The notes under the pieces were generated by a model. That model saw only the letters and a list, made by a program, of their open reading frames with translations. It had not been told where the DNA came from and searched no databases. Positions 269 to 63,339 of a DNA stretch of 64,000 bases are shown one piece after another (within the stretch, counting starts at the first letter, position 1; the number at the start of each line of letters is the position of its first letter). Made by a program: the position numbers and the translations under genes. Source of the stretch: a virus; the IMG/VR virus record IMGVR_UViG_3300043331_000919, positions 1 through 64,000 of that record; one strand, written 5' to 3'.

Positions 269-985
269 TCATCCGAGTCGAGCCAGCCGAGCGAGTAGCT
301 GGATCCTGGTCTGCCGGCAGAGCTCGCTGGAGATACCCATCCGCTCCCCGGCCTCCTTCAGGTTGGCCCCGTCGCAGTAGAAGGCGATCACGAAGGCGCG
401 GGCCCGCGGGGGCAGCTTGGCGAGGCGCTCTGCCACTCGTACCCGGGCGTCCGTGAGGTGCAGCATGACCTCAGCCTCGGAGTCCTGCCCGCGGGTCTCC
501 ATGACGCTATTCTCGACGTCGAGAGATCCGGCGAGTGACTTCTGGTGCAGGAGTGCCTGGCGCACGGCGGCCACGTCCTCGCCGATGGTGTCGGCGATCT
601 CCTCCATGGTCGGGTCGCGTTGCAGGCGCTCCCAGAGCTCGTCGATGGCCGCCTGCACCAGCTTCACCTTGCGCCGCGTGGCGCGCGCCAGTGGATCCTG
701 CTTCCGCTGGCCGTCCACGATGGCGCCCGAGATCCGGCGCGTCGCGTAGGTCTCGAACTTCACGCCCTGCTCGGGGTCGAACCGCTGGATCGCGTCGATC
801 AAGCCATGCTGGGCGTACGAGAGGATGTCCTCGGAGTCCTGGTAGGCCGGCGCCTTGGCCAGCGCCCGGCGCGCAAGGTACGACGCGAGGCTGGAGTACT
901 GCCGCATCAGCAGCTCCATGGCGTCGGAGTTCTGGGTCTCACCGTAGACCGCCCAGACCTCGGCGAGCTCGTCGTCGCTCAGCAC
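269..985 (-). CDS. whiG: RNA polymerase sigma-70 factor, FliA/WhiG family
   Basis: Region 2 motif DILSYAQHGLIDAIQRFDPEQGVKFETYATRRISGAIVD, region 3 LQRDPTMEEIA, region 4 HTH; start placed at GTG overlapping the upstream stop. Confidence 0.85.
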   Translation of the reverse strand: MLSDDELAEVWAVYGETQNSDAMELLMRQYSSLASYLARRALAKAPAYQDSEDILSYAQHGLIDAIQRFDPEQGVKFETYATRRISGAIVDGQRKQDPLARATRRKVKLVQAAIDELWERLQRDPTMEEIADTIGEDVAAVRQALLHQKSLAGSLDVENSVMETRGQDSEAEVMLHLTDARVRVAERLAKLPPRARAFVIAFYCDGANLKEAGERMGISSELCRQTRIQLLARLARLG

Positions 986-1368
986 AGGCACTCGCAGCCG
1001 CGGGGCTGGCAGTAGCAGGCGCTGTTGTCGACCCAGTGGTGGCGCGAGATCCTCTGGCCGCTCGCGAGGTCGAGATGGGCCACCGTGTAGCAGTGCTCGC
1101 AGCCACACCGCGTCCCGCATCGCATCGTCGCGGTGTCGATCCGGGCTCGGTGCAACAGCTGGAAGTCCGGCCCGTTCAGCCAGCGCTCCATCGCCACGAC
1201 GTTCTCGACCCGATCCGGCCGTGGGACCGGGATCAGGTCTTCTACGTTCCAGCGGCCGGAGCGAGTCACCACCTGGTCGTTCGGCAGGTCGATCTCCCTG
1301 ATGGTCTCGACGACGCCTGACGGCACGCGCAGCGTGCTCACGCCGGGGCAGATGGGCAGGTGACTCAC
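979..1368 (-). CDS. Cys-rich hypothetical protein with an internal WLD-type motif (VVAMERWLN)
   Basis: Coding part of ORF 979..1587; CxxxCxCxxC and CxC..CxCxC; stop overlaps the sigma start. Confidence 0.6.
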   Translation of the reverse strand: MSHLPICPGVSTLRVPSGVVETIREIDLPNDQVVTRSGRWNVEDLIPVPRPDRVENVVAMERWLNGPDFQLLHRARIDTATMRCGTRCGCEHCYTVAHLDLASGQRISRHHWVDNSACYCQPRGCECLC

Positions 1369-1480
1369 GCTTCCATCATCACCCCAGCGTCCAGACCTTT
1401 GCCCCAGTCTGCGACTGAACGGGCGTTGAGATGGGAACAGGTCGAAGTGAGAGGTGTCCAACCGACCACGGAGGTTCGAG

Positions 1481-1738
1481 ATGACCGGACGCGAGAAGGG
1501 CACCGCCACGATGCCCTGCCCCCACTGCGGCAACGAGCTCGCTGCGATCGCCCAGGCGGACGGCAGCCTCGCTGGCGAGACCTGCAAGAAGTGCTACGGC
1601 GGCGTCGAGAAGGCGAGCCAGCAGGAGGAGGTCCAGGGCCGCGAGGTCGCGACCCCCGAGGCCGAGGGCGCTGTCACCACCGAGGCCGCCACCGAGGAGG
1701 CCCCCACCCGGAAGAAGAAGGAGCGCAGCGATGGCTGA
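1481..1738 (+). CDS. Small zinc-ribbon protein
   Basis: CPHC...CKKC; GGAGG RBS before ATG 1481. Confidence 0.7.
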   Translation: MTGREKGTATMPCPHCGNELAAIAQADGSLAGETCKKCYGGVEKASQQEEVQGREVATPEAEGAVTTEAATEEAPTRKKKERSDG

Positions 1739-1979
1739 CGAGAAGACCGGCGAGAAGAAGACCCAGGCCCCAGCCAAGAAGACCGCGGCCAAGAAGACCG
1801 CGGCCAAGAAGACCACCTCCGGTCGGGCTCTGCTCGCCCGCGGCAAGGGCGGCGGGAAGCACAAGGGCAGCGGGAAGCGCGGCACCGACCCGGTCCTCAC
1901 CCCGGGCCAGCTCTCCGGCCTCGCCGGCGGCCCGACGCAGGACGACCTCAACCCCGCCTTCGGCGGGCCGCAGGACTGA
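1731..1979 (+). CDS. Small basic histone-H1-like protein (AKK repeats)
   Basis: APAKKTAAKKTAAKKTT repeats; overlaps the upstream gene end. Confidence 0.65.
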   Translation: MADEKTGEKKTQAPAKKTAAKKTAAKKTTSGRALLARGKGGGKHKGSGKRGTDPVLTPGQLSGLAGGPTQDDLNPAFGGPQD

Positions 1980-3559: not shown

Positions 3560-3900
3560 TGACGGGACACACGGGCCCGCTGGGCATCGAGGCGCCGCCG
3601 GTCCGCCTCGCGGCCGGCGTCAAGCCTTGGCCCGAGAGCTGGGAGTTTCGCCCGGGGATCGACGACTGTGACCACCAGTGGCAGATCGCGGTCGTCACCT
3701 CGGCCGACACCATCGTGAGCGAGGCGGTCGTGCGCTGCGTGGACTGCTTCAGCCCGCGCTGCGGGAGCTCGGTGAATCGGGATCCGTGCATGCTGCGCCG
3801 CCATCACGAGCACAACCACCTGCCGTGGGGCGCGTGGGTGCGCACCCGACTGCCGGAGGCGCTGGACCGCGAGTCGGTGGAGAGGTGGCTGGACGCATGA
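3559..3900 (+). CDS. Cys/His-rich hypothetical protein ending in a WLD tag (DRESVERWLDA)
   Basis: TGATG overlap start; part of ORF 3124..3900. Confidence 0.7.
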   Translation: MTGHTGPLGIEAPPVRLAAGVKPWPESWEFRPGIDDCDHQWQIAVVTSADTIVSEAVVRCVDCFSPRCGSSVNRDPCMLRRHHEHNHLPWGAWVRTRLPEALDRESVERWLDA

Positions 3901-31960: not shown

Positions 31961-33004
31961 GTGGATCTCTCCTCTCGGGACGTGGCTGAGTCATGGCTCG
32001 ACGCTCCCGTCGCAACGGGCGTTGTCGACCTGCAGTCGACCGGTCTCGTCGCCACCGATCAGGACGTCGCGAGGCTCTCGCGGCCCCAGCGCGAGGACCG
32101 CGTCACGCGCCTGCTGGAGGTCAGCCACCAGCTGGTCGACTACGCGATCCGGGAGCACATCACCGACGCCGGCAAGACCCACGTCGGCACCGCGGTGCTC
32201 TACTCCGGCGGCAACGACTCCACGACCCTCGCCCACATTTTCCGGCAGCGCGCCACCCACGCGATCCACGCCAACACCGGCATCGGCGTCGAGGCCACCC
32301 GCGAGTTCGTCCGCGAGACCTGCGACCTGTGGGGTCTGCCGCTGATCGAGAAGCACCCGCCGACGTCGTTCCGCGACCTCGTGCTCGACCAGGGCTTCCC
32401 CGGTCCGGCGCACCACTACAAGATGTACCAGCGCCTGAAGGAGCGGTGCCTCCGTCAGGCCCGCCGCGACCTGGTTGCGAACGGTCGGAAGCAGCGGGTC
32501 GTGTTCCTCGCTGGCCGCCGACGGGAGGAGTCCGCCCGGCGCGCCAGCGTCCCCGAGATGGAGCGCGACGGCGCTGTCGTCTGGGTCTCGCCGCTGGTGC
32601 TGTGGACCAAGCTCGACCTGAACACCTACCGCCTGATGATGCAGGCCGTCGGTGACGACGTGCCGCGCAACAAGGTCTCCGACCTGATCCACATGAGCGG
32701 CGAGTGCCTGTGCGGCTCGTTCGCTCACGCCGGAGAGCTGGAGGAGATCGGTGAGTGGTTCCCGGAGGTTCGCGCGGAGATCGAGGCGCTGGAGGCCGAG
32801 GTGCTCGCCACCGGCAAGCATCCGGAGTGGCGCTGTCGCTGGGGCTGGGGCGCCGACAAGGACGTCATCCAGAAGCTGCGCAAGCAGGGCATGCCGGACG
32901 CCGAGATCGCGGCGCTGTTCGAGCGCTCCACGTCGGGCCCGCTCTGCTCGTCCTGCGACTCCCGGGCGGACGGCGGCACGGTGATCTCGGGAGGGGGCTC
33001 CTGA
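31961..33004 (+). CDS. PAPS-reductase-like PP-loop protein with N-terminal WLD tag
   Basis: YSGGNDS PP-loop, NTG, GRRREESARR, SPL, SGECLC. Confidence 0.8.
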   Translation: MDLSSRDVAESWLDAPVATGVVDLQSTGLVATDQDVARLSRPQREDRVTRLLEVSHQLVDYAIREHITDAGKTHVGTAVLYSGGNDSTTLAHIFRQRATHAIHANTGIGVEATREFVRETCDLWGLPLIEKHPPTSFRDLVLDQGFPGPAHHYKMYQRLKERCLRQARRDLVANGRKQRVVFLAGRRREESARRASVPEMERDGAVVWVSPLVLWTKLDLNTYRLMMQAVGDDVPRNKVSDLIHMSGECLCGSFAHAGELEEIGEWFPEVRAEIEALEAEVLATGKHPEWRCRWGWGADKDVIQKLRKQGMPDAEIAALFERSTSGPLCSSCDSRADGGTVISGGGS

Positions 33005-33867
33005 TGGTGGACCTGACCTCTCGGGCCGCGGTCGAGTCATGGCTCGATCACCCCTCGCCAACGGTCGTTGTCATGTACTCGGGCGGCAAGGGCTCCTGGG
33101 CCGCTGCTCGCCACGTCCGCGACATCTGGGGCATCCCGGCCGACCAGATGAAGCTGCTGTTCACCGACACCAACGGCGAGGACCCCGACCTCTACCGGTT
33201 CCTGCAGGAGTCCGCTGACGACATCGGTGCCGAGCTGATCGTGCTCGACAACGACGGGCGGACGATCTGGGACGTCTTCCGCAAGCAGCGCATGATCGGC
33301 AACACCCGGCTCAGCGTCTGCTCGCGGGTGCTGAAGCAGGAGCCGGCCCGGCGGTGGCTCGAAGCCAACACCGACCCGGACCGCACCGGCGTGATCGTGG
33401 GCATCGACTGGACCGAGACGCACCGACTGCCGGCGATCGAGCGGAACTACCTGCCGTGGACCGCGCTCGCGCCGCTCTGCGAGCCCGGAGCGTGGTCGAA
33501 GGACCGGATCTCCAAGGAACTCGCTGCCGTCGGCATCGCGGAGCCGCGGCTGTACGCCATGGGCTTCCCGCACAACAACTGCGCCGGCGCCTGCGTTCGC
33601 GGCGGGCAGGGCCAGTGGGCGCTGCTGCTCCAGCACAACCCCGAGCGGTACGCCCAGGAGGAGGCGGAGGAGAACCGGTTCCGCGAGGAGACCGGCAAGG
33701 ACGTCGCGATCCTGCGAGATCGCCGCGGGGGCACCACCAAGCCCCTCACCCTCACTGCGCTGCGTAAGCGCATCGAGGGTGAGGGCGAGGTCGACATGGA
33801 TGACCTCGGTGGTTGCGGGTGCATGACCGACCTCACGAGTGAGGAGCAGGCACGAGCCCCCGGATGA
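33004..33867 (+). CDS. Second PAPS-reductase-like PP-loop protein with N-terminal WLD tag
   Basis: YSGGKGS, FTDT..ED, CSRVLK, GFPHNNCAGACV, GGCGC. Confidence 0.78.
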   Translation: MVDLTSRAAVESWLDHPSPTVVVMYSGGKGSWAAARHVRDIWGIPADQMKLLFTDTNGEDPDLYRFLQESADDIGAELIVLDNDGRTIWDVFRKQRMIGNTRLSVCSRVLKQEPARRWLEANTDPDRTGVIVGIDWTETHRLPAIERNYLPWTALAPLCEPGAWSKDRISKELAAVGIAEPRLYAMGFPHNNCAGACVRGGQGQWALLLQHNPERYAQEEAEENRFREETGKDVAILRDRRGGTTKPLTLTALRKRIEGEGEVDMDDLGGCGCMTDLTSEEQARAPG

Positions 33868-41713: not shown

Positions 41714-42090
41714 GCACCGAGCATCACGACATCGTGCTCGCGATCGACGCGCAGGGCATGGTGCACGCGAAGGCGGTGTGCACGGCCCCGCCGGAGGCGC
41801 AGTGCCGATGGGAGTCGAAGTGCGACTGCGAGGTCTACTACCACCTCGCGGTCGACGAGCACGGGCCGTTCCACGTCGCTGAGGGTCCGCCGCCGATCCG
41901 GGACCGCGTCGAGCTGGAGGACTGGCTGGAGGCGAAGCACCGCATGGCGTACGGCGGCGAGTGCCGGGTGGTCGCGTGGATCAACGCTGAGGACGCGCTG
42001 GAGGTCTACGACGGCGACGCCCGGGAGCTGTTCCGGCAGAAGATCGAGACCGCCTGGAACGGCGACTGCTACGTCTGGAAGGCGGCGTGA
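41710..42090 (+). CDS. Hypothetical protein with internal WLD tag (DRVELEDWLEA)
   Basis: ATGA overlap. Confidence 0.6.
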   Translation: MSTEHHDIVLAIDAQGMVHAKAVCTAPPEAQCRWESKCDCEVYYHLAVDEHGPFHVAEGPPPIRDRVELEDWLEAKHRMAYGGECRVVAWINAEDALEVYDGDARELFRQKIETAWNGDCYVWKAA

Positions 42091-43293: not shown

Positions 43294-43587
43294 TCATGAC
43301 TCCAGCCACTCGTCGAGCGCCTCGGCGTCGCTGAAGTCCGGCACGAGCTCGCCGGCGAGCACGGTGGACTGTGGGAAGGGAATGGGATCACTCCCGCTCC
43401 CGTCGGACATCCAGTAGTTGCCCTGGCGCGACCGGGGCGCCTCGGCGATGGTCAGCATGCGCTGATGTCTGCCGTCGTCCAGCAACACTCGTTGGCCGAC
43501 CGGGAGCGGCCGGAACTCCAGGTCCGGGTCGTAGGAGTCGGGGAAGTCCTGTGCCTCGTCGTAGTACCCCCTCACGAATCCAGCCAC
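43294..43587 (-). CDS. Small protein with C-terminal WLD tag (DFSDAEALDEWLES)
   Basis: ORF track; SH3-like LPVGQRVLL. Confidence 0.6.
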   Translation of the reverse strand: MAGFVRGYYDEAQDFPDSYDPDLEFRPLPVGQRVLLDDGRHQRMLTIAEAPRSRQGNYWMSDGSGSDPIPFPQSTVLAGELVPDFSDAEALDEWLES

Positions 43588-43829
43588 CTCTCCAGGTCGT
43601 CACGGTTGGCCATGTCCACTCTCCTCACCTTGCTCTCGTGTACGTCGTAGCGCACGAACCCTTCGTCCTCGCAGTCGACGTCGTAGAGCATCCCCTCCGG
43701 CGTGGAGGAGCGCCCCACGATGCGCCCGCTGGCCACGAAGTCTCCGAGGGCGAGCTCGATGAGAACGTGCGTTCCCTTCTCCAGTGCACCCTCGCTCAGC
43801 GGCTGCCACGGCTCCATCTCGTCGCCCAT
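43572..43829 (-). CDS. Small SH3-like protein with C-terminal WLD tag (DMANRDDLERWLDS)
   Basis: TGATG overlap start. Confidence 0.65.
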   Translation of the reverse strand: MGDEMEPWQPLSEGALEKGTHVLIELALGDFVASGRIVGRSSTPEGMLYDVDCEDEGFVRYDVHESKVRRVDMANRDDLERWLDS

Positions 43830-46862: not shown

Positions 46863-47204
46863 GTGAGCACTGCTGAGTTGGAGCTGGAACGCCTCGGGCT
46901 GGTCCCAACGGACGTTCGGGACTACGTGCTGGAGCGGGATCACTCCTGCTGTCGCGTCTGCGGTCGCTACGTCGAGGAGCCAGCCCTCCACCACGTCGTC
47001 TTCAGGAGCCAGGGCGGCCTGGACGTGCCCAGCAACCTGATCACCATCGGCTGGGTGCCGTGGCACGACTGCCACCTCCCCATCGCCCATGGTCCCGAGT
47101 CCCGGACGTGGCGGGAGATCTTCCTCGCCATCGCCGACCGGCCCGGCATCACGGCTCTTCAGGCTCGTCGGTGGCAAGCCACGCCTCCACCGACTCTCGG
47201 CTGA
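46863..47204 (+). CDS. HNH endonuclease
   Basis: VLERDHSCCRVC...LHHVVFRSQGG...NLIT...CH...H. Confidence 0.8.
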   Translation: MSTAELELERLGLVPTDVRDYVLERDHSCCRVCGRYVEEPALHHVVFRSQGGLDVPSNLITIGWVPWHDCHLPIAHGPESRTWREIFLAIADRPGITALQARRWQATPPPTLG

Positions 47205-47436
47205 GCTCGGCCGGCGGCGCGTCCACTCGCTCCAGGCAGTCCGCGTCGAGCACGATCCCCTTGGAGCCCGAGTCGTCGGGGGCCTTCACGAACAGCAGGG
47301 TGACGACCCCGTCCTCGCGCAGCTCAGGCACCTCGGCGCGGGCGAGCACCACCTCGCCGACGTCCCACCAGCAGTTGCGGTGGGCGCCGTACAGCGTGGG
47401 CGACTTCACGACGCGGTAGCGCAGCCAGGCGCTCAC
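47149..47436 (-). CDS. Small protein with C-terminal WLD tag (ELSRESVEAWLAT)
   Basis: GTGA overlap with the ruvB stop. Confidence 0.6.
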   Translation of the reverse strand: MSAWLRYRVVKSPTLYGAHRNCWWDVGEVVLARAEVPELREDGVVTLLFVKAPDDSGSKGIVLDADCLERVDAPPAELSRESVEAWLATDEPEEP

Positions 47437-50306: not shown

Positions 50307-50620
50307 CCGTCACCTCCATCCAGCCAGAGCTCTACGAGCTCGCGGTTGTCCAGGTCGATGGGGGCCTCGTGGATCGTGTCCGACTCCGGCCACCAGAAGG
50401 GATCGCGAGTGCAGGTGTCCGGTCGATCTGCGAGTGGCTCGAAGACGATGTGCGCCCCGCCCGTAGTTGGTCGCGTCAGGTTGGCGAAGCGATCCCGAGT
50501 CTTCGCAGGCAGCTCTGAGAGGTCGCGAACGACACCGGGCAGCCCGATCCACTCGAACTGATTCAGGGGTGGCGAGGCGCGCGAGATCAGCACACGGTCG
50601 CCGGGGCGGAACCTACTCAT
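50303..50620 (-). CDS. SH3-like protein with C-terminal WLD tag (DLDNRELVELWLDG)
   Basis: MSRFRPGDRVLI start overlapping the upstream gene end. Confidence 0.6.
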   Translation of the reverse strand: MSRFRPGDRVLISRASPPLNQFEWIGLPGVVRDLSELPAKTRDRFANLTRPTTGGAHIVFEPLADRPDTCTRDPFWWPESDTIHEAPIDLDNRELVELWLDGGDG

Positions 50621-50888
50621 CGAGCCACTCCTCCAATGCCTCGCGGTCGTCGATCGGCACCACGCGGCCGAGGTAGGCGACCCGCTGCTCGCGGGTGACC
50701 TCCAGCACGTTGCCTTCGACCGGAAGGGCGTAGACGCGTTCCCCATTGACGAAGGGCCCGGGCCGGAGCGGGTCGACGCACAGCCAGGTCTCGGCGAATG
50801 GCCGCATGCGCCGGTCTACGCGCGCGAACCGGTCGCCGGGCCGCAGGTCGATCGCAAGGATGATGGGCGGCGCGAGGTCGTCAGTCAT
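50613..50888 (-). CDS. SH3-like protein with C-terminal WLD tag (PIDDREALEEWLDE)
   Basis: DLRPGDRF pattern. Confidence 0.6.
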   Translation of the reverse strand: MTDDLAPPIILAIDLRPGDRFARVDRRMRPFAETWLCVDPLRPGPFVNGERVYALPVEGNVLEVTREQRVAYLGRVVPIDDREALEEWLDE

Positions 50889-51027
50889 CGAGGAACTCCT
50901 CCGCTCCATCGCGGGTCGACAGGTCAGGACGCTCGGCCACCCGTTCGGACTCCTGGATCCGGCGGGTCGCCGGGCAGTCGCGGGGCTCATGGTCTCCGTC
51001 GCAAAGTCCGCAGTATGCGTCAGTCAT
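50881..51027 (-). CDS. 48-aa micro-protein with tag variant (DLSTRDGAEEFLDD)
   Basis: Hand-translated: MTDAYCGLCDGDHEPRDCPATRRIQESERVAERPDLSTRDGAEEFLDD*; fills the gap with overlaps on both sides. Confidence 0.6.
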   Translation of the reverse strand: MTDAYCGLCDGDHEPRDCPATRRIQESERVAERPDLSTRDGAEEFLDD

Positions 51028-52006
51028 CGAGCATCGCCTCCCGCAGGCCGCGGAGCGCCTCGTGCGCCACCTCCGCGGCAGCCGCCGTCACGTCCTGGTT
51101 CACCTGCAGGTTCTCCATGTGCTCCGTCGCGTTGTTGAGCACCTCGTCGTAGCGGGCCTGCAGCTTGGCGTACGCCGCCGGCGTGATCGACTTCCGCGTC
51201 GACAGCAGCTCGTCGACCTCGCGCGTCAGGTCGCGCAGCGACTGGCTGGCCTCCCGCTCGAACACCTTCGCCATGAACGCGCGTTCCCGCTCTAGGTCGA
51301 CCATCGGGATCATGTTCATGTGGCAGCCACCGCCGAAGCGGCTGACCAGATCTGCGACCCGGGCGAGCTCGTCGTCACGACTGGAGTGCACGAAGTAGAC
51401 GCCGCCCTTGATCTCGATGGCGTTGAGCTTCTTCAGGTAGCTGCGGATGCAGCCGCGGACCTTCTGGCCGTCGAGGAAGTCGTAGTAGTCGTGGTAGCGC
51501 GACACGATGTCCTTCGCCACCTGCTGCACCAGGGTGAGCTCGCCCTTCTCCAGGTTGGTCGGGTTCACCTGCACGCGCAGGTGGGCGGCGCTCTGGTCGT
51601 CGGCCTTGGTGGGCCGGTAGAAGGTGCAGGTGATCGCCTCGGTGTAGGAGAGCCGGCGCTTGCCGCCGTCCTTGACCTCCCGGGTGATCTGGCGGGTGAT
51701 GTAGTTCGGCGTCGAGGAGACCTCGCGGCACAGCAGGTTGCCGGTGCGGTCCTTGGACATCGGGTAGGTGTCCTTGGTGTCCGAGGTGGCCTTCTTGAAG
51801 GCGTCGAGGTACTTGTTCGGCGCCGGCAGGTAGGCCTCGTCGAGGTCGAGGTCGCGGAACCACTTCACCATGTCGTCGCGTCGGATGGGCTCGTCGGTGA
51901 TCGTGAACAGCACGATCCGGCCGAGCAGAACGTCCGTTGGTAGGTCGTTCAGCTCGTCGATGTACGCCCGGAGCTCGGACGGCTTGGACTTCTTCGCTGT
52001 GGCCAT
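51020..52006 (-). CDS. Conserved hypothetical protein (possibly DUF6744/DUF3150-like, near the AAA-vWA module)
   Basis: 328 aa, strong codon bias, GGVYFV motif; family assignment tentative. Confidence 0.6.
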   Translation of the reverse strand: MATAKKSKPSELRAYIDELNDLPTDVLLGRIVLFTITDEPIRRDDMVKWFRDLDLDEAYLPAPNKYLDAFKKATSDTKDTYPMSKDRTGNLLCREVSSTPNYITRQITREVKDGGKRRLSYTEAITCTFYRPTKADDQSAAHLRVQVNPTNLEKGELTLVQQVAKDIVSRYHDYYDFLDGQKVRGCIRSYLKKLNAIEIKGGVYFVHSSRDDELARVADLVSRFGGGCHMNMIPMVDLERERAFMAKVFEREASQSLRDLTREVDELLSTRKSITPAAYAKLQARYDEVLNNATEHMENLQVNQDVTAAAAEVAHEALRGLREAMLDD

Positions 52007-52650: not shown

Positions 52651-52968
52651 TCAGTCCTCCTTGTCGAGCCAGCGCTCGACTGCGTGCGTGTCGTTCATGT
52701 CGGGGATCGCAGACTCGACGACCTCCAGGCAGCGGAAGTCGACGCCGATCGCCATGCTGTCCTCGTCGAGGTCTGTCCCGTTCGAGGCGTAGACGCCGTC
52801 GCCCCAGAGAACCCAGGCGATGCCGGGGCTGCTGGTGTCGATCTCGGTGACCTCGCCCATCGCGCCGATCCCGGCGTATGGCCTGCAGAGACCCTCCGTC
52901 GCTCCGCGGAAGGTCAGGTTGGTCGCGAGGCGCACTCGGTCGCCCTCGCGGATCACGAGTCGAGCCAT
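52651..52968 (-). CDS. SH3-like protein with C-terminal WLD tag (DMNDTHAVERWLDK)
   Basis: IREGDRVRL pattern. Confidence 0.65.
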   Translation of the reverse strand: MARLVIREGDRVRLATNLTFRGATEGLCRPYAGIGAMGEVTEIDTSSPGIAWVLWGDGVYASNGTDLDEDSMAIGVDFRCLEVVESAIPDMNDTHAVERWLDKED

Positions 52969-53285
52969 GCCTCCACCTCCTCGCGGTCTGTGCTCTCCGG
53001 AGCGTCGTACTTCCTGGTGGGCAGGGCCACCCCGGCGTAGCTCTGGATGCAAGCCCAGAGTCGCTCGCCGGCGTCCTTGCACTTGCGGCGCTCCATCGAC
53101 TGGCCGCGCGCCGTGGTGGCCGCGGCGACCGCGTAGAAGACCGCGTTGCGTGCATCTTCGAGCGGGACGCTCTCGCCCTCCGCGAGGCGGAGCAGCACGT
53201 TGCGCCACTCGTCGAGCACCTTCCGCAGCGTGCTCAACTCCCGCGCGTCAGCCCGCCGGGGCTCGGCGAGGTGAATGAACAGCAT
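52953..53285 (-). CDS. Hypothetical protein with C-terminal WLD tag (STDREEVEAWLDS)
   Basis: GAGGAG RBS after the vWA stop. Confidence 0.65.
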   Translation of the reverse strand: MLFIHLAEPRRADARELSTLRKVLDEWRNVLLRLAEGESVPLEDARNAVFYAVAAATTARGQSMERRKCKDAGERLWACIQSYAGVALPTRKYDAPESTDREEVEAWLDS

Positions 53286-53293: not shown

Positions 53294-54847
53294 TCAGATC
53301 GTCCGGAACAGTTCCTGCACGCCCTCGGGGGAGGCGTTCAGGCTGTTGATGTTCATGCAGCGGTCGGCGAGATCCTTCAGGTTGTTGCGGAACGGCTCGC
53401 CACCGATCTGCAGCCCGTAGCAGCGGATGCCGGCGGACTCGCGCAGCTCGCGCCACTCCTCGATGAACTCGGGGCTGACCCGGCAGTCGTCGTCGGTGAT
53501 GAAGACGACGTCGGGCAGGTCGCGCCCGCCGCGCTGGTAGTCGCGCACGATGTTCGCGGCCATGGCGATGGGCCGCTCGTACTGCGTGCCGCCGGAGAAG
53601 AAGTGCTCGGTGAACTCGATGACCTTCTCGATCGCCATGACGCCGCCGGGGAAGTCGATGCGCCACTGCTGGCTCGGGCTGGAGAAGCCGATGTAGGTGA
53701 AGTCCCGGCCGCCCCGGCGCGCCTGGTCGCACAGCGCCAGCGCCACGGCCTTCGACCACGCCTCGCGGGTGTTGCCCTCGTCGTCGACGCGAGCGCCCAT
53801 CGAGCCGGACTCGTCGCAGACCACGATGATCGGGCCCTTGCCGGCGCGCTCCGGGCCCACGGTCTCCCACTGCATGAGCTGGTGCCGGTGGTAGCGCAGC
53901 CAGAACTGGTCCTCCAGCTCAGGGATCGCCAGCGCGTTGATCTCGTTGGCGACCAGCTTCGCGATGTCGCGGCCAGTGGTGACGTCGCGGCGCTCGGCCG
54001 GCGCGCCGGTGACCTTGCGACGACGCTCGGCGTCCGCGAACTGGCGGAACGCGCCCACGAGGTCGGCGAGCTGCTTGATCTTGCCCCGGTCCAGGCGCTC
54101 CGCGAGGCGCCGGCGCTCCTCGAACGACATGCGCTGCAGCGTGCCGTCCTCCACGCCGTAGCCCTGCATGGCCTCCTGCTCGGCCTCGATCTTGTCCGCG
54201 GCGTCCTTCAGGCCCTTCTTCACCTGCTCCTTGGCCTGCTCGGCGTTCGCCTCGGCGTCGCCCTCGGCCTGCGCCATGGCGGCCATCGCCTGCGCGAGCG
54301 ACTCCGCGGCCTCCTCCTGGCCCTCGCCACTCTGCTGGGCCGCCTGCGCCGCTGCCAGCGCCTCCTGCAGCGCCTGCTGTGCTTGCGCGACGGCCTCGTT
54401 GATCTCGTCGGCGGCCTGCATCATGTCGTCCATGCGGTCGCGCATCGTGATCATGGCCAGCGCGGTGTTGTACTCGTCGAGCTTGGTGTGTGACCGGATG
54501 TAGGAGAACTCCTCGTCCTCGAACATCTGCCCGAGCATCGCGTGCTGCGCGACGTACTCCGGCTTCATCCGCGCCTGCTCGGTGAACCGCGGGTCTGCCT
54601 GGTTGAGCAGGTTGAACAGATCCTGGTAGCCGGCGCGCGCGGTGTCACGCTCCTCGGCGGCCTCGTTGACCTGCTCAGCGAGCGCGGGCACCTGGTCCAG
54701 CGTGGTGAGGTAGGCGAACCGGTCGAACCGGTCGAACTTCACCGCGTGCGTCTCGGTCGGTGTGACCGGCTTCGACGCGGCGACGGGGTCGTCCCAGAAG
54801 TCGTCGCCCTGCGCCTTCGCGATCATCTTGTCGAGGTACTCGCTCAT
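53294..54847 (-). CDS. vWA domain protein (ViaA-like)
   Basis: GPIIVVCDESGSM MIDAS, GGTQY, DVVFITD. Confidence 0.85.
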   Translation of the reverse strand: MSEYLDKMIAKAQGDDFWDDPVAASKPVTPTETHAVKFDRFDRFAYLTTLDQVPALAEQVNEAAEERDTARAGYQDLFNLLNQADPRFTEQARMKPEYVAQHAMLGQMFEDEEFSYIRSHTKLDEYNTALAMITMRDRMDDMMQAADEINEAVAQAQQALQEALAAAQAAQQSGEGQEEAAESLAQAMAAMAQAEGDAEANAEQAKEQVKKGLKDAADKIEAEQEAMQGYGVEDGTLQRMSFEERRRLAERLDRGKIKQLADLVGAFRQFADAERRRKVTGAPAERRDVTTGRDIAKLVANEINALAIPELEDQFWLRYHRHQLMQWETVGPERAGKGPIIVVCDESGSMGARVDDEGNTREAWSKAVALALCDQARRGGRDFTYIGFSSPSQQWRIDFPGGVMAIEKVIEFTEHFFSGGTQYERPIAMAANIVRDYQRGGRDLPDVVFITDDDCRVSPEFIEEWRELRESAGIRCYGLQIGGEPFRNNLKDLADRCMNINSLNASPEGVQELFRTI

Positions 54848-55173
54848 GTGAGCCCTTCCTGCTGCTTGAACTGACGGAGAGCCTTGCGTAGGCCCTCCTC
54901 GTTGTACTCGCTGTCGATCGGGCCGAACTCAGCGCCAAGCGCGAACCGCCACGCGGTGGCTGCGTCGGGCCCGCGGCCCCAGTTGCCGCTGAACTCGACT
55001 TGGTAGACGTCGTCGCTGACCCAGCCCTCGGTGACGCCGTCACCGACGTCCACCAGCCACTTGCCGGCGTCGAGGTCGCCGAGAAAGTAGGCGTCCCCCT
55101 TGCGCTCCTCCAGCAGCGGCTCCGTGTCGTCGAGCCACTCCTCGACCGCGTCGCGATCGCTCGGATCAGGCAT
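54844..55173 (-). CDS. Acidic protein with N-terminal WLD tag (DPSDRDAVEEWLDD)
   Basis: Coding part of ORF 54844..55314. Confidence 0.65.
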   Translation of the reverse strand: MPDPSDRDAVEEWLDDTEPLLEERKGDAYFLGDLDAGKWLVDVGDGVTEGWVSDDVYQVEFSGNWGRGPDAATAWRFALGAEFGPIDSEYNEEGLRKALRQFKQQEGLT

Positions 55174-55453
55174 CAGCATCGAGGAACTCCTCCGCCTTCG
55201 CGCGGGTGGACAGGTCGAACGCCGACACCCTGATGAGGCACGGGTCGATCCAGAAGTGCTGGCCGGTGCCGAGCACCTCGACGTGGACGTCGTGCCACTC
55301 TTCGACGTGACCACGCACGATGCCGACCGTGCCGGCGTCGACGTACTGCTCGGTCTCCGAGCCGGGCTCGCGCCACACCTCGCCGGCCCTCGTGGAAACG
55401 AGCGTTCCCTCGTCCGGGAACACCGGCGTGTCGACGCAGGCCCAGCCGCTCAT
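55166..55453 (-). CDS. SH3-like protein with tag variant (DLSTRAKAEEFLDA)
   Basis: ATGA overlap start. Confidence 0.6.
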   Translation of the reverse strand: MSGWACVDTPVFPDEGTLVSTRAGEVWREPGSETEQYVDAGTVGIVRGHVEEWHDVHVEVLGTGQHFWIDPCLIRVSAFDLSTRAKAEEFLDADA

Positions 55454-55710
55454 CCCGCCCGCTCCTCGTCCCACCTGACCTGATCGCCGAGCACGTCGCG
55501 GGTCAACGACAGCGCCTCGCCGCGGATCGCGCCCTTCAGCGCCTTCAGGGCCTCCATCACGAGCGGGCTGGCGGTCTCCACGACCACCACCGCGGAGCCG
55601 TGCTCCACGCTGGAGCCGAGGCAGACCTGCGCCTGCACGCCGCGCTTCAGCTCGCGGATCCCGCGCACCTCGCCCTTCAGCATCGAGGTGCCGTTGCTGA
55701 CGGTGCTCAT
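55450..55710 (-). CDS. Hypothetical protein
   Basis: ATGA overlap with the AAA gene stop. Confidence 0.55.
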   Translation of the reverse strand: MSTVSNGTSMLKGEVRGIRELKRGVQAQVCLGSSVEHGSAVVVVETASPLVMEALKALKGAIRGEALSLTRDVLGDQVRWDEERAG

Positions 55711-56936
55711 CGCTGGCCCCCGTCGCCCATGCCCAGGCGCTTCTGGAGCATGATCTCGGCCTCGGCCTCCGGCTGCTCCAGGCAGACCATGAAGGCGCGC
55801 TTCAGGGTCCGGCGGTGCAGGTCGGAGACCTCCTTGAACTGCGGGATGCGGCGGCCGTCGGCCTCCATCAGCATCGTGTCGAGGCGGTTGCGGGCGTCGG
55901 CGAGCTTGCGGTTCGCCTCCTTGCCGTACGCCTGTCGCGCGTCGGTCTGGTCGTTGCCGCTCGCGTCCGGCCCGGTGCGCTCGGTGATGCCGTCGTCGAC
56001 CTGCTTGATCGCGTCGCGGATCTCCAGCAGCGGCTCGACGAACGGGTTGGCGGCCGACAGGCACAGCCGCGAGACCTTGTCGATCTGCTCGACGGTGTCC
56101 CACAGCGTGAAGCGGAGCACGACCAGGTCGTCCTCCAGCACCTCGTCGCGACCGTCGAGGAAGGCGTGCGCCTGCAGCGCGCGCATCGAGGCGCGCCAGC
56201 GACGGTCGGAGGGGTAGAGGTGCTCGCGGGTGAACGCGGCCTTCAGGCTGGCGAGCGCCTGGAGTGCGCGCTCGTCGATCTTCACGGCCGGCACGACGTC
56301 GTCGATGACGTCCTTCAGCTCCATCCACTCGATCTCGGTCTCGGGCGCCTTCATGTCGCCCACGAGCAGCTGGCGGAAGTTGTCGGTGTCCTGCAGGTAG
56401 TCCACGACCACCCGGAACAGGAGTCGGTCCCACAGGGCCGCGGCGTCGTCGGACTCCGCGGTCACCATCTCGTTGGACGCGGTGAACGCCGTCGACAGCG
56501 GCGCCGGGTGGCTGGAACGCCCGTTCTCGACCTCGTGGTAGAGCCGCTCGTTGAGCAGCGCCAGCAGGTCGTGGCCGAGGATGCTCGACATCTTGCCGAT
56601 CTCGTCCAGGAAGGCGAACTCCACCTGCGAGGCGAAGTGCTCGCGCTTCAGCACGTAGTCACCGGTCTCGCGGAACCGCTTCACGTCCAGCGGGCCCATG
56701 ACCGCCTCGGTGGGGCGGGTCTTGGAGAGCAGGGTCTCGAAGTAGCGCGCGCCCATGAAGGTGCGCACCATGGCGCGGACCAGGTCCGACTTCGCGGTGC
56801 CCGGAGGGCCCAGCAGGAAGACGTGCTGGCCGCTCAGGACCGCTAGGAGCATCGCGAGGATGGCGTCCGAGCGCTCCAGGTAGGTCGCGTTCAGCTCGTC
56901 CCGCAGGGCGTTGAGCTTGGTGGCGATGGGGTGCAT
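55707..56936 (-). CDS. MoxR-family AAA+ ATPase (RavA-like)
   Basis: HVFLLGPPGTAKS, AFLDEIGK, ASNE, ALWDRLLFR, SDRRW. Confidence 0.88.
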   Translation of the reverse strand: MHPIATKLNALRDELNATYLERSDAILAMLLAVLSGQHVFLLGPPGTAKSDLVRAMVRTFMGARYFETLLSKTRPTEAVMGPLDVKRFRETGDYVLKREHFASQVEFAFLDEIGKMSSILGHDLLALLNERLYHEVENGRSSHPAPLSTAFTASNEMVTAESDDAAALWDRLLFRVVVDYLQDTDNFRQLLVGDMKAPETEIEWMELKDVIDDVVPAVKIDERALQALASLKAAFTREHLYPSDRRWRASMRALQAHAFLDGRDEVLEDDLVVLRFTLWDTVEQIDKVSRLCLSAANPFVEPLLEIRDAIKQVDDGITERTGPDASGNDQTDARQAYGKEANRKLADARNRLDTMLMEADGRRIPQFKEVSDLHRRTLKRAFMVCLEQPEAEAEIMLQKRLGMGDGGQR

Positions 56937-59443: not shown

Positions 59444-59678
59444 AGACAGCGTTGAGGTTCGAGGGGCGCTCGGTGAGGCGCGCGGTCTCGTCCTGAGTGA
59501 TGCTGCCGTGGAGCTTCTCGCCGTGCTGGCGGGCGTGGTGGGCGCACCAGAGAAGGTCGCCGGCCTCGTGCTGCGTGCGCACGTACGCCTGCGCGCCGCA
59601 CCGGTCGCACCGGTCCAGCGCCGTCAGGGGCGCCGTGCTCTCCACGTCCGGTACTTCGACCGCAACGGGCGTTGTCAT
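59442..59678 (-). CDS. Small conserved actinobacterial Zn-binding protein
   Basis: LTALDRCDRCGAQAYV...LLWCAHH. Confidence 0.7.
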   Translation of the reverse strand: MTTPVAVEVPDVESTAPLTALDRCDRCGAQAYVRTQHEAGDLLWCAHHARQHGEKLHGSITQDETARLTERPSNLNAV

Positions 59679-61663: not shown

Positions 61664-62133
61664 AGGCCCACGTCCTCGCGGTCGGCGGTGATGGTGCGGT
61701 GGGAGCCGTCCTCGCGGGCTGCGTGCCAGTCCTCGTCGCGCTCGACCTCGGTTGCGAAGACCATCTCGCCCTGCGGGTAGAACCCGGCGACCAGGTCGCC
61801 GTTCGCGAGCCGGAACCAGCGCCATTCCGAGCGTGTGTCGTCGCTGTCGGGCAGCGACGTGAGCAACTGCGTGACGGTCGCGTGGTCACGGATCGGGAAG
61901 GATTCTGCGATGAAGAAGGTCTCGCTGCCGCTGGCATCGACGGCCTCGATCATGGCCTCGTGACGCAGCGCCTCGTAGTACCCAAGCACGACGGAGTCGG
62001 CCGGGTTGAGAGCGCCCACGCCAGCGAGGGAGCGCAACGCCTGCGCGACTCCGTGTGGTGTGATCGGCGCGCTGGCGTCGGCCAGGTGTTTGCGCACCGC
62101 GTCGAGCACGACCGTGTCTGGGGAGAAAGTCAC
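61660..62133 (-). CDS. Hypothetical protein
   Basis: GTGA overlaps; WRWFRLANGDLVAGFYPQGE. Confidence 0.55.
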   Translation of the reverse strand: MTFSPDTVVLDAVRKHLADASAPITPHGVAQALRSLAGVGALNPADSVVLGYYEALRHEAMIEAVDASGSETFFIAESFPIRDHATVTQLLTSLPDSDDTRSEWRWFRLANGDLVAGFYPQGEMVFATEVERDEDWHAAREDGSHRTITADREDVGL

Positions 62134-62348
62134 AGGGCCTCCTGGGCGTAGCGCAGCACCGGGCCGCGGCGCCGCCGGAGCGTGACCACGATCCCCGCCG
62201 CTGCACGGGGGTCCACCTTGACGTCGATCAGGGCGAGGTAGGCACCGTACTGCTCGAACACGGTTCGCACAGCTGCGAAGTCGCGCTTCGCGAGTGCCTG
62301 CGTGCGTTTGGACTCGAACGCCCTGTCGGCCTTGGTCTTGTGACTCAT
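62130..62348 (-). CDS. Hypothetical basic protein
   Basis: ATGA overlap. Confidence 0.5.
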   Translation of the reverse strand: MSHKTKADRAFESKRTQALAKRDFAAVRTVFEQYGAYLALIDVKVDPRAAAGIVVTLRRRRGPVLRYAQEAL

Positions 62349-62797
62349 CGCCACATCCTTTCGCCGCCCGCGGCGACCCGGTCGAACGCCTTGTAGTCCC
62401 GGGTCGCGTGGTCGGTGTAGTGGTAGTGCGAGCCGAGCGCAGTGCGCACCGACCCCTGGTGCTGGCCCGTGGTGGGCGAGTAGCGGACCGCCGGCATGAC
62501 CCAGCGACCCAGCGGCCCCGCGGTCTCCAGCCACTCGTCAACTGCGTGCGGGTCGTCGAGTGACGGCAGGATCGCGAGTGTCGGGTCGAACCACGCGATC
62601 GGCGTGGCGTAGGACCAGACCGCGTAGGTCGCGGCCATGAGCGAGTCGTGCCAGCGCTGCGGCAGGCAGCCCGTGGTGAGGCCGAGCCAGGAGTGCTCGT
62701 CGAGCCGCTGCCCGGAGAAGGACTCGCGGTAGTTCGTGAACGAGCGTTGCTCGCGGATCATCGCGATCGCGTCGTCGTTCACGCGGATCTTCTTCAC
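62345..62797 (-). CDS. Hypothetical protein with inserted WLD tag (LDDPHAVDEWLET)
   Basis: YAVWSYATPIAW...[tag]...W.MP..RYSPTTGQHQ. Confidence 0.65.
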   Translation of the reverse strand: MKKIRVNDDAIAMIREQRSFTNYRESFSGQRLDEHSWLGLTTGCLPQRWHDSLMAATYAVWSYATPIAWFDPTLAILPSLDDPHAVDEWLETAGPLGRWVMPAVRYSPTTGQHQGSVRTALGSHYHYTDHATRDYKAFDRVAAGGERMWR

Positions 62798-63339
62798 GGC
62801 GTCTCCAGCCATGCGTCCACCACCTTCGTGTCGTGCAGCGGCACCAGCTGCCGCGCGGGGTAGATCCGGTCGACCAGGGCGAACGGCGAGCCGGTGTCCT
62901 TGGGGTCGCGCGCCGGGTCGCTGATGTGGTTCGGCCACCACGAGGCGTACTCGCGCGCGAAGTTCTTCACGCTCGGGTCCTTGGCGCGCCAGCCTCGCGT
63001 GGCGACCATGACTCGGGTCTGCTCCAGGAAGTTCGCACGGCCGGCGTACTGGCCGATGATCGCGTCGGGGTCGTAGCGGAACATCACCGCGATCCACCAG
63101 CCCCACTCCATCCAGGTGGCGGCGGCGCCGAAGGATTCGGCGCCGTAGCGGCCGGTGTTGCGCCGGCGCCTGCGGTGCGGCGCCTCCTGCCCCTCCAGCG
63201 CGGTGTCGAACTTCCGGGCGCGGCTCCGTGAGCCGGACTCGTCGCAGCGGTCTAGGTAGACGCCGGCGTCGACCAGACCCGCATCCTTCAGGGCTAGGTG
63301 CAGGTCGCGGTAGGTCATGCGGTCGGTGTGGATCAGCAC
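62794..63339 (-). CDS. Hypothetical protein with C-terminal WLD tag (LHDTKVVDAWLETP)
   Basis: GSRSRARKF...AATWMEWGWW...DPDA. Confidence 0.65.
   Translation of the reverse strand: MLIHTDRMTYRDLHLALKDAGLVDAGVYLDRCDESGSRSRARKFDTALEGQEAPHRRRRRNTGRYGAESFGAAATWMEWGWWIAVMFRYDPDAIIGQYAGRANFLEQTRVMVATRGWRAKDPSVKNFAREYASWWPNHISDPARDPKDTGSPFALVDRIYPARQLVPLHDTKVVDAWLETP

Follow-up and report, generated by a model that had tools for sequence, protein, structure and literature searches.

What does a short acidic peptide do that recurs on about one in five of the proteins of a single phage, and what reads it? The phage in question is an uncultured soil actinophage, known only from soil metagenomes, with a genome of 79,506 bp; the window analysed here is the first 64 kb of that genome. 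An earlier note on this DNA had described an acidic helix shared by about 20 unrelated proteins and proposed that it is a portable docking or sorting signal. The observation of the tag is confirmed and is stronger than first described, and the interpretation as a whole is partly supported. The tag comprises 15 residues with the consensus P-D-[LM]-S-x-R-x-x-[VA]-E-x-[WF]-L-[DE]-x (about PDLSxRxxVExWLD; consensus sequence PDLSDREAVEEWLDS).

Copies were called using a position matrix built from the tag copies themselves, which was scanned over the 79,506-bp genome. This gave 26 strong copies on as many proteins, with 16 inside the window (Table 1) and 10 beyond it, clustered at 71.8–76.3 kb. The motif is clearly enriched over shuffled controls, since residue-shuffled proteomes gave a mean of 0.04 copies each at the identical threshold, and for the bare pattern E.[WF]L[DE] there are 18 occurrences where 0.9 would be expected. 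Leave-one-out scores of the copies run from 13.6 to 38.8 bits. Every one of the 26 lies in the frame of a plausible gene, and the matrix scan of the genome found no copy that was out of frame, antisense or in non-coding DNA. Twenty copies are C-terminal, three N-terminal and three internal, and there is no carrier within the structural block 5304–30247, which agrees with the claim that virion genes lack the tag. Relative to the W/F residue (position 0), position −2 is E in 22 copies and D in four, position +2 is mostly D or E, and proline is both the consensus and the best-scoring residue at −11, with a proline-rich linker preceding the tag. The helix has a net charge of about −3.3, and C-terminal copies are followed by one to seven variable, often acidic, residues. 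We found no published description of such a tag in the literature, and it behaves like a previously undescribed address label.

Table 1 Strong tag copies in the window and the genes of the MoxR-vWA-DUF6744 block.
Feature	Position	Strand	Score or evidence
Tag, C-terminus of gene 3559-3900 (113 aa)	3853..3897	+	32.2 bits
Tag, N-terminus of PAPS-reductase-like gene 31961-33004	31961..32005	+	matrix match; GGAGG 10 nt upstream of GTG start
Tag, N-terminus of PAPS-reductase-like gene 33004-33867	33007..33051	+	34.5 bits
Tag, internal (residues 67-81) in gene 41692-42090	41890..41934	+	27.3 bits
Tag, C-terminus of gene 43294-43575 (93 aa)	43297..43341	-	31.8 bits
Tag, C-terminus of gene 43572-43829 (85 aa)	43575..43619	-	32.6 bits
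Tag near C-terminus of gene 47149-47436, directly downstream of RuvB-like gene	47170..47214	-	27.1 bits
Tag, C-terminus of small ORF 50303-50620 (105 aa)	50315..50359	-	29.1 bits
Tag, C-terminus of gene 50613-50888 (91 aa)	50616..50660	-	32.9 bits
Tag (F variant), C-terminus of mini-ORF 50881-51027 (48 aa), adjoining DUF6744	50884..50928	-	35.5 bits
DUF6744 protein	51020..52006	-	adjoins vWA in all eight related phages
Tag, C-terminus of gene 52651-52968 (105 aa)	52660..52704	-	36.0 bits
Tag, C-terminus of gene 52953-53285, directly downstream of vWA	52956..53000	-	32.8 bits
vWA protein (517 aa), leading receptor candidate	53294..54847	-	Pfam VWA_2
Tag, N-terminus of gene 54844-55179, directly upstream of vWA, overlapping vWA start	55126..55170	-	40.3 bits
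Tag (F variant), C-terminus of gene 55166-55453, between MoxR and vWA	55175..55219	-	31.4 bits
MoxR-type AAA+ ATPase (409 aa), vWA partner	55707..56936	-	Pfam bpMoxR 1.3e-35, AAA_5, AAA_lid_8
Tag, internal (residues 78-92) in gene 62345-62797	62522..62566	-	29.7 bits
Tag, C-terminus of gene 62794-63339 (181 aa)	62800..62844	-	25.9 bits; leave-one-out 13.6 bits

Sixteen of the 20 copies first reported are thus strong, the 10 beyond the window had been missed, and four are not retained. The stretch at 979 (VENVVAMERWLN) scores −9.8 bits and was rejected, as was QSLDEWLDA at 52255 as a strong copy (−0.3 bits), being half a motif. The stretch at 59675 (GDLAAIGKWLDD, 5.7 bits) is kept by the orthologue in a tag-less relative and is therefore a property of its protein family. 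That at 43829 (DARAAFEEWLED, 6.3 bits), likewise rejected as a strong copy, sits in a C-terminal extension past the conserved domain and may be a decayed tag.

The carriers were described as unrelated, and with the tag masked they indeed show no significant similarity to one another (best E 0.008); no Pfam family was found for the small ones. Their bodies include beta-rich proteins, CxxC minis, all-alpha folds, a multi-TM protein and two PAPS-reductase-like enzymes. Orthologues lack the tag: it is present in none of 119 homologues (49–77% identity) of the PAPS-reductase-like protein 33004-33867, and the orthologue of 41692-42090 in the related phage G406 has an 11-residue gap exactly at the tag. 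The tag is an add-on and is independent of the carrier fold. Two known domains were considered and rejected as its identity. The FecR N-terminal anti-sigma domain (DUF4880) matched one of 20 carriers over 17 residues (16.1 bits against a cut-off of 25, E 0.01), and the peripheral subunit-binding domain (E3_binding) resembles the tag in its second helix alone (TREDVEKWLA in 2btg), at E 1, the whole helix-loop-helix being absent.

Elsewhere the tag is rare. Two other metagenomic carriers were found: an unrelated body of 74 aa that ends in a perfect tag (P0124), and a contig (L167) with a tagged gene at the same position as 47149-47436, downstream of a RuvB-like gene, the carrier bodies there including a WGR domain. 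A variant, PPKF-x-[ST]-x-EEAD-x-W[LM][ED], is present in two of seven related phages, with three copies in G406 and one in G001/G003. The other five, which have the same MoxR-vWA module, show no detectable tag, and none was found within 1.5 kb of the vWA gene at six actinobacterial loci. The tag proper is thus confined to this lineage, while relatives have variants of it.

Could the peptide be incidental, a by-product of gene junctions? It might be encoded by a DNA or RNA cassette carrying the next ribosome-binding site and start, or be the nascent peptide of termination-reinitiation, spread with mini-genes. For 15 of the 20 C-terminal copies the following start is overlapping or at most 10 nt away, and in eight the next ATG is embedded in L-D-x, 7 nt after GAGGAG, as in gene 50613-50888, where it falls inside the L-D-E codons. 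In gene 3559-3900 the stop overlaps the next start as GCATGA, and the tag residues E-R-W are encoded by GAG AGG TGG. Codon choice in the tags also serves the ribosome-binding site and start of the next gene: GAT accounts for 10 of 17 Asp codons at +2 (8.7% genome-wide) and AGG for three of six Arg codons at −1 (4% genome-wide). However, close spacing is the norm in this genome, with gaps of at most 10 nt in 92 of 127 adjacent gene pairs, and the tag is seen neither in non-coding DNA nor out of frame. Its upstream half, P-D-L-S-x-R, is 18–33 nt ahead of any Shine-Dalgarno (SD) sequence and is conserved as amino acids only. The spacing between W and the next start varies from −1 to over 1000 nt, and six N-terminal or internal copies have no start behind them; the nucleotide conservation and fixed distance to a start that mark a Start-associated or SD element are not seen. 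Codons differ between copies, as had been observed. At the DNA level the copies average 56% identity, and where the first two positions of a codon are invariant the third holds little information. Both codon families for Ser (TCN and AGY) are in use, the choice of Leu codon is not fixed either, and W (TGG) interchanges with F (TTC). Selection acts on the tag peptide. SD requirements shape the tag codons and do not explain the tag, in agreement with the earlier note, and the by-product reading is the least probable of the alternatives weighed here. Every start of an N-terminal copy has a good SD upstream (in 33004-33867 the SD precedes the ATG start, and a later in-frame ATG has none), so that these copies are translated. 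It is also improbable that the tag is the integral last helix of one fast-diverging family, descended from old duplicates of a small beta-barrel-plus-helix protein. About ten carriers do resemble small beta-rich domains with a G-D/Q-x-V start, a low-confidence model of 43572-43829 has five strands followed by a helix at residues 76–84 that coincides with the tag, and five tagged mini-genes stand in tandem at 71.8–72.9 kb. Such descent is difficult to reconcile with a tag that also occurs on CxxC minis, all-alpha and multi-TM bodies, the WGR protein and two enzymes, that can be N-terminal or inserted in a loop, that carrier homologues lack, and that follows a proline-rich linker.

Two further alternatives accept a selected peptide. 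It may be a host-directed mimic, a multi-copy decoy or inhibitor of a host hub such as an RNA polymerase partner, the Pup-proteasome or the divisome, rather than an address for its carrier. Acidic helices with W/F-L are typical of hub-binding peptides, the F variant (AEEFLD) resembles what we take to be the AEDFV stretch of Pup, and the tag sequence varies between phage lineages, as would be expected if it tracked a host target. A decoy, however, requires one abundant carrier and not 26 different bodies, and its insertion into enzymes is hard to explain, so we regard mimicry as unlikely, if less so than either alternative above. The likeliest of the four, though still with little probability, is homotypic co-assembly, in which the tags would bundle as short amphipathic helices and gather their carriers into an assembly or condensate without a dedicated receptor. 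The W/L face of the amphipathic helix, its occurrence at either end or in a loop, and the small size of many carriers fit this, and the effector-associated adaptor domains of MoxR-vWA conflict systems act homotypically (PMC7159879). Yet a three-turn helix of such negative charge should repel its own kind, and MoxR, vWA and DUF6744 are untagged (best tag scores −8.7, −8.8 and −9.3 bits), whereas adaptor domains also sit on the core component.

On balance, we think it probable that the tag is a portable address label read in trans by a putative common receptor. It would form an acidic amphipathic helix of three turns, N-capped and preceded by proline, with V/A (−3), W/F (0) and L (+1) displayed beside the invariant acidic residue at −2. 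Evolution has attached the tag to the C-terminus (20), the N-terminus (three) or a loop (three) of 26 unrelated early or non-structural proteins, and one receptor would read it in trans, so that a fifth of the phage proteome would be handled as one group. We infer both the existence of this receptor and its identity. The leading candidate is the phage vWA-MoxR pair, in which the acidic helix would be caught on the MIDAS face of vWA, leaving the AAA+ ring to remodel, load or release the client; among all possibilities, we consider this identification a tentative one, well short of probable. There is a small chance that the receptor is instead a host protease or unfoldase and the tag a degron, and a smaller one that it is another host hub; a procapsid receptor is very improbable. 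A capsid-loading signal of the T4 type, as the earlier note had suggested, fits poorly because most copies are C-terminal, lie on early-region genes and are absent from the structural block. Its suggestion of a degron is contradicted for any type needing a free C-terminus, since some copies are N-terminal or internal and the residues that follow the motif vary.

The further suggestion of a client tag for the AAA+/vWA chaperone gains some support from gene order, from the metal site and, weakly, from fold predictions. MoxR and vWA are encoded together, and the pair is kept in all seven relatives. The MIDAS of the vWA protein is intact (D-E-S-G-S at 345–349, T421 and D452), with residues invariant or nearly so across 60 homologues, and the E or D at position −2 gives the tag an exposed acidic residue that could complete the metal site, as a MIDAS ligand needs. 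The DUF6744 model (pLDDT 82) has no clear structural match. Seven of the 26 copies lie within the MoxR-vWA-DUF6744 block and both genes abutting vWA are tagged; the other 19 copies, including the 10-copy cluster, are far from vWA. In G001/G003 a small ORF at the position of 52953-53285 ends in the variant tag, and in G406 a variant-tag gene occupies the position of 54844-55179, so a tagged gene directly flanks vWA in three lineages. Matches of at least 9.4 bits occur about once per 256 kb of comparable DNA. At that rate the windows flanking vWA at 15 loci should hold about 0.05, and two were seen, in a window chosen after the matches were known. All whole-record tag-bearing genomes (this phage, G000; G406; G001/G003) have MoxR-vWA. 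The module is also present, tag-less, in the five relatives and six bacterial loci, and therefore works without tags.

A predicted complex of vWA, Mg and the tag scored 0.40 against 0.00 for the best control. Three runs of vWA with the tag gave 0.00, 0.40 and 0.56, with 0% of contacts in common and a partner pLDDT of at least 41. In calibration, 58 of 80 solved complexes and two of 110 mismatched pairs reached the mark, but at scores of 0.60 or below only seven of the 80 did so, along with both passing mismatches. A pass at such a score is therefore wrong in most cases, except for a guess that was already likely. These models weakly suggest that vWA may bind the tag.

Several known systems bear comparison with the proposed address label. 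Start-associated sequences of Cluster K mycobacteriophages are repeated elements just upstream of many starts and conserved as DNA. The tag codons similarly supply an SD and start, but the tag DNA has diverged beneath a conserved peptide, and no start follows six of the copies. The T4 capsid targeting sequence, too, is a short portable peptide that brings unrelated phage proteins to one destination. It is N-terminal, cleaved by the prohead protease and found on virion proteins, whereas the present tag is mostly C-terminal and on non-structural genes. C-terminal degrons (ssrA-type for ClpX) and the Pup helix recognised by Mpa also direct many proteins to one AAA+ machine through a short tail that they share. 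Unlike these, the phage tag needs no free C-terminus, is followed by variable and often acidic residues, and has no non-polar LAA-like end. Comparable in layout are hub-binding terminal peptides, such as the tails of T4 gp43, gp33 and gp55 for gp45, the bacterial QL[SD]LF motif and the acidic tips of SSB, where one hub reads a short motif that many unrelated proteins carry terminally or in a loop. The beta-clamp motif (QL[SD]LF or QLxLxL) was rejected as an identity for the tag, its pattern being absent from the consensus, which fits none of the hub motifs compared; no clamp gene was recognised among the phage genes run through Pfam or PHROGs.

In actinobacterial VMAP ternary systems, adjacent small fast-diverging proteins carry a conserved C-terminal peptide (FxSxx-COOH, RxD and acidic types); a zincin peptidase encoded alongside frees this peptide, which a radical-SAM enzyme often modifies (PMC7159879). 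The phage likewise has variable small proteins with a conserved terminal peptide beside MoxR-vWA genes in an actinobacterial setting. Its tag differs in motif and is also N-terminal and internal; no peptidase family was found among the phage proteins scanned, and the single HExxH of the proteome is a chance HEHNH within a carrier of 113 aa. To our knowledge, no MoxR-vWA system has a defined, transferable recognition peptide common to dozens of clients. In the present case, moreover, five relatives have the same module and no tags, and binding to the tag is weakly predicted. In the published systems the MIDAS of the vWA domain is where a substrate peptide is captured, and the task of remodelling falls to MoxR, the MIDAS ligands being described as extended or unstructured (PMC7159879); the tag looks helical, which counts against a vWA reader. 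Substrate capture of this kind is documented for RavA-ViaA, CbbQ-CbbO with Rubisco, the Midasin MIDAS with Ytm1/Rsa4, and ATV p618/p892 (Kaur, Burroughs, Iyer and Aravind 2020, PMC7159879). Like these pairs, the phage has a MoxR AAA+ ATPase and a vWA protein with an intact MIDAS, to which the tag would offer an invariant acidic residue beside hydrophobic anchors.

The recurring element is a tag of about 15 residues, P-D-[LM]-S-x-R-x-x-[VA]-E-x-[WF]-L-[DE]-x, in which we number the W/F as position 0. A six-frame scan gives 26 copies, all read in frame with plausible genes. The window has 16 of them and ten fall at 71.8–76.3 kb; an independent profile search over the whole record recovers the same 26. 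When proteins were residue-shuffled, each separately, a mean of 0.04 tag matches was obtained; for the core E.[WF]L[DE] there are 18 occurrences where 0.9 would be expected, and leave-one-out scores run from 13.6 to 38.8 bits. The tag is thus a real feature. The tagged proteins, or carriers, are 48–347 aa long (median 100 aa), and none lies in the structural block. The earlier note, made from the sequence alone, had listed 20 copies, four of which (979, 52255, 59675 and 43829) are weak or wrong; the recurrence itself stands and spans the whole record, the enrichment over shuffled controls by which it was to be judged is seen, and the reported absence of copies from virion structural genes is borne out. 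The acidic C-terminal stretch KWLDDMESDE of the gene at 59675 is kept as QLWLDDMEGDD in the orthologue of G002, a related tag-less phage, and on this alignment reads as a feature of its own protein family, not a tag copy. Beyond the window, five consecutive mini-genes of 65–87 aa all end in the tag; four of the next starts fall inside the L-D-x codons, and the bodies have no detectable mutual similarity.

The tag is a portable add-on. Masking it leaves no significant similarity among the 26 carriers (best E 0.008), and no Pfam family was found for the small ones. Their bodies include beta-rich and CxxC minis, one all-alpha and one multi-TM protein, and two enzymes. Comparison with orthologues, suggested in the earlier note, gives the expected result twice. 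All 119 homologues of one tagged PAPS-reductase-like enzyme, at identities of up to 77%, lack the tag and begin a few residues ahead of the SGGKGS loop, and the orthologue of an internally tagged gene in the related phage G406 aligns on both sides with an 11-residue gap exactly at the tag. No tags were found in the flanks of PAPS-reductase homologues in ~1 Mb over 80 viral contigs.

Two adjacent PAPS-reductase-like genes, otherwise dissimilar, both begin with the tag, and by inspection their tag-encoding leaders are the most alike among all copies; it looks as though the leader of one was recently copied to the other. Elsewhere, a 77%-identical homologue is without the leader. Several tiny CxxC-type carriers resemble zinc ribbons, and in other carriers the first residues follow G-D/Q-x-V, as is typical of small beta-barrels.

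Position −11 of the tag has proline as its consensus and best-scoring residue, often with more prolines ahead of it. S/T/D at −8/−7 and E/D at −5 form a helix N-cap box, and L/M at −9 may provide a hydrophobic staple. One face of the helix carries V/A(−3), W/F(0) and L(+1), beside E/D(−2) and D/E(+2), and the mean net charge is −3.3. For one carrier a single-sequence model was of low confidence (pLDDT 51), so only its secondary structure was used: five strands, then a terminal helix exactly over the tag. Together these features suggest a short, self-capping, exposed docking helix.

The virus record is linear, 79,506 bp long (the window being its first 64,000 bases) and 68% G+C, and calling by codon-position G+C and a codon model gave 134 genes. 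Megablast with two 7-kb pieces as queries found no match in the phage collection. The nearest terminase, from a mangrove-soil phage, is 38% identical, and the closest relatives of other proteins are a vWA protein (P0128, 72%) and a PAPS-reductase (P0002, 77%). A Nocardioides genome encodes a vWA homologue at 47% identity, and soil Actinomycetota are candidate hosts. A terminase-to-Ku core is common to seven related phage records at 25–62% amino-acid identity, and no gene is confined to tag bearers by presence or absence across eight related phages. Near-identical sequence occurs only in soil metagenomes, and the sequencing runs listed as containing the phage are four soil-metagenome DNA sets and no RNA set. 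Run contigs placed at 80% likeness show no variant within any tag, at depths of 2–8 and with much unrelated GC-rich noise, hence no usable population data. One stretch beyond the window is far more sparsely filled than elsewhere, the gene caller giving only two genes in ~4.3 kb.

Features of the phage genome that bear on the tag (L003, stretch beyond the window)
Feature	Position	Strand	Tag
Sigma factor	269–985		
Virion and tail genes	up to ~30 kb	+	
PD-(D/E)XK nuclease, two PAPS-reductase-like enzymes, AAA_24 ATPase, primase-helicase	after virion block		
Adjacent PAPS-reductase-like gene pair	31961–33867		N-terminal, both
PAPS-reductase-like enzyme compared with 119 homologues	33004–33867		N-terminal
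Gene with gapped G406 orthologue	41692–42090		internal
Carrier with single-sequence model	43572–43829		terminal
Long leftward arm: RuvB-like ATPase, DUF6744, vWA protein, MoxR-type AAA+ ATPase, ATP-dependent ligase, Ku			
Gene matched in position by the L167 WGR gene	47149–47436		
CxxC-type, zinc-ribbon-like carriers	50881–51027; L003:8460–8925; L003:10227–10397		present
DUF6744	51020–52006		
Gene abutting vWA	52953–53285		C-terminal
vWA protein	53294–54847	−	
Gene abutting vWA	54844–55179		N-terminal
MoxR-type AAA+ ATPase	55707–56936	−	
Gene with family-specific acidic C-terminus	59675–60181		none
Sparsely called stretch	66989–71258		
Five consecutive mini-genes	71794–72925 (L003:7794–8925)		C-terminal, all

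Beyond this phage the tag is rare and lineage-restricted. Among 1.84 billion representative proteins, a profile search gave four matches at E 0.001 or better: one of the phage's own proteins, the metagenomic protein P0124 (74 aa, an unrelated body and a perfect C-terminal tag), and two repeat proteins that we discount. As only one of the phage's 26 copies passes E 0.001, such a search misses most true copies. A DNA-pattern scan added L167, a 1343-bp metagenome contig on which a RuvB-like gene is followed directly 3' by a WGR-domain protein whose end, PDLSNREAVEAWLDA, is a perfect tag. The strict DNA pattern gave at least 120 matches in each of the metagenome and genome collections, nearly all pattern-forced and internal to large proteins, and L167 is the sole real copy among those listed. 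No copy was confirmed among 256 stretches from a peptide-pattern scan of IMG/VR or in a metagenome scan with P0124 as query, and with the tag profile a word-index search retrieved no proteins other than those of this phage. With a relaxed pattern we find 24 copies in this phage, three in G406, one in G001/G003 and none in the related phages G002, G407, G408 and G410. Because the G406 and G001 copies follow their own consensus, PPKF-x-[ST]-x-EEAD-x-W[LM][ED], the tag constitutes a small family with lineage-specific versions, one that by these sequence counts is greatly expanded in this phage.

On L167, the stop of the tagged WGR gene is overlapped by the next start, and its position is that of a gene in the window. 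In the related phages G409 and G410, small, very acidic ORFs directly upstream of MoxR (stretches L370 and L375) contain LERWLT and FEQWLS; these could be remote forms of the tag in lineages counted as tag-less, a likeness that is suggestive only. Several other candidates were rejected. The repeat protein P0121 (989 aa, sulfotransferase-like) has four tag-like repeats of ~115 aa, each with GP[IM]D[FL]xNTxx[VI]E[EG]WL, a likeness taken as chance; both it and the low-complexity P0122 are taken as sums of weak repeated matches, not as homologues. Two strict-pattern matches in IMG/VR were chance, and one extra doubtful relaxed-pattern match in each of G409, G406 and G001 was discounted. DUF4880 (the FecR N-terminal domain; E 0.01) and the second helix alone of the E3-binding domain (E 1) resemble the tag weakly and fall short of membership.

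Selection on the tag acts on the peptide, as the earlier note had argued from its differing codons. As DNA the copies are on average only 56% identical; at invariant residues codon positions 1 and 2 carry 2 bits and the third little; serine is encoded by both TCN and AGY and leucine by CTG, CTC and CTT, and F (TTC) takes the place of W (TGG) in some copies. What is conserved, therefore, cannot be a DNA or RNA element. A second layer of coding is also evident, since 15 of the 20 C-terminal copies are overlapped by the next start or have it no more than 10 nt away, and in eight copies E-E-[WF]-L-D-x is written as GAGGAG, a 7-nt spacer and then ATG. Of the 17 Asp codons at +2, 10 are GAT (59%, against a genome-wide 8.7%), and of the six Arg codons at −1, three are AGG (50%, against 4%). 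These rare codons create the ATG and Shine–Dalgarno sequence of the next gene: clear dual coding. That the tag is a by-product of such junctions, or of a nascent peptide, is nevertheless decidedly improbable. Gaps of 10 nt or less separate 92 of 127 adjacent gene pairs; gene overlap is thus ordinary in this genome, and the junction explains codon choice, not the motif. Downstream Shine–Dalgarno sequences, proposed earlier as a possible refutation, leave unexplained the upstream half of the motif and the six N-terminal and internal copies; a good ribosome-binding site precedes the tag in each of the three N-terminal ones.

We lean towards an address tag that is read in trans by one receptor. 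Beside the masked carriers and the untagged orthologues, it is improbable that the tag is an integral helix of one diverged family. The docking helix might alternatively serve homotypic co-assembly of the tags, which we think unlikely, or be a host-directed mimic, which appears quite unlikely. That a reader for the address tag exists, which one it is and what becomes of its clients are inferences. A host protease or unfoldase, making the tag a degron, is a doubtful receptor, another host hub quite a doubtful one, and the procapsid a highly improbable one. The phage's own vWA–MoxR pair, with the tag as the client-recognition signal of this machine, is the leading candidate receptor, which we put forward tentatively.

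Genomic context hints at this pair. Seven copies lie within the MoxR–vWA–DUF6744 block, and both genes abutting vWA are tagged. G406 has a variant tag near the start of the gene directly upstream of vWA, and in G001/G003 one forms the end of a 49-aa ORF directly downstream of vWA. In comparable DNA a match of 9.4 bits or more turns up about once per 256 kb, which puts the expectation for the flanks of 15 vWA loci at ~0.05, where two are seen; as the flank window was picked after the fact, the adjacency is suggestive only. Five related phages and six bacterial loci that have the module without the tag count against the link (no tag was found within 1.5 kb of the six actinobacterial vWA loci), as does the location of most copies elsewhere in the genome. 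The residues of the vWA metal site (MIDAS) are intact and conserved. vWA domains are described as capturing a substrate peptide there, after which remodelling of the substrate falls to MoxR, and actinobacterial MoxR–vWA systems have fast-diverging small proteins with conserved terminal peptides alongside (PMC7159879). Folding vWA with Mg and the tag profile gave a score of 0.40 (runs 0.00, 0.40 and 0.56) against 0.00 for three controls, with 0% of contacts agreeing between runs and a partner pLDDT of at least 41. In calibration, 58 of 80 solved complexes and two of 110 mismatched pairs attained the mark used; only seven of the 80 complexes did so at 0.60 or under, as did both of the passing mismatches. 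The verdict of the folding test on vWA–tag binding is weak support.

DUF6744 is kept beside vWA in all eight related phages and may be a third component of the module. Its model (pLDDT 82) is alpha/beta towards the N-terminus and has a three-helix bundle at the C-terminal end; Foldseek gave no match at E 0.001 or better and no clear structural relative, and by VIA-align residues 235–328 match only generic three-helix bundles.

Were vWA–MoxR the reader, a single ATP-driven remodeller would receive about one fifth of the proteome via the tag. The clients so routed would be mostly fast-evolving mini-proteins together with two DNA-modification-type enzymes, and the lineage-specific tag versions would have co-evolved with the vWA receptor. 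MoxR-type chaperones are, to our knowledge, a large and poorly understood class with mostly unknown substrates; this would be a rare case of a defined, transferable recognition code for them, and synthetic recruitment would gain a transferable module. Any single reader would make the tag the mark of a functional group among otherwise unannotatable ORFan proteins, and the 15-mer, which can be fused, mutated or used as bait, a direct handle on their common pathway. The locus also illustrates dual coding, in which a single stretch spells out a conserved helix and, by way of the rare codons GAT and AGG, the next gene's start and the ribosome-binding site ahead of it.

Known shared peptide addresses include degrons, clamp-binding tails and capsid-targeting leaders. 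We know of no description in actinophages of one tag on a fifth of a phage's proteins, and searches of the literature on shared terminal motifs of phage proteins, capsid-targeting sequences and phage MoxR–vWA found no description of this tag, in agreement with the earlier note, which knew of no equivalent in actinophages. The tag works like hub-binding terminal peptides, degrons and the T4 capsid-targeting leader but has the defining features of none of them; the capsid-loading reading offered earlier fits poorly, and the degron one is doubtful. It fits the general logic of substrate capture by MoxR–vWA systems, although binding is here predicted only weakly.
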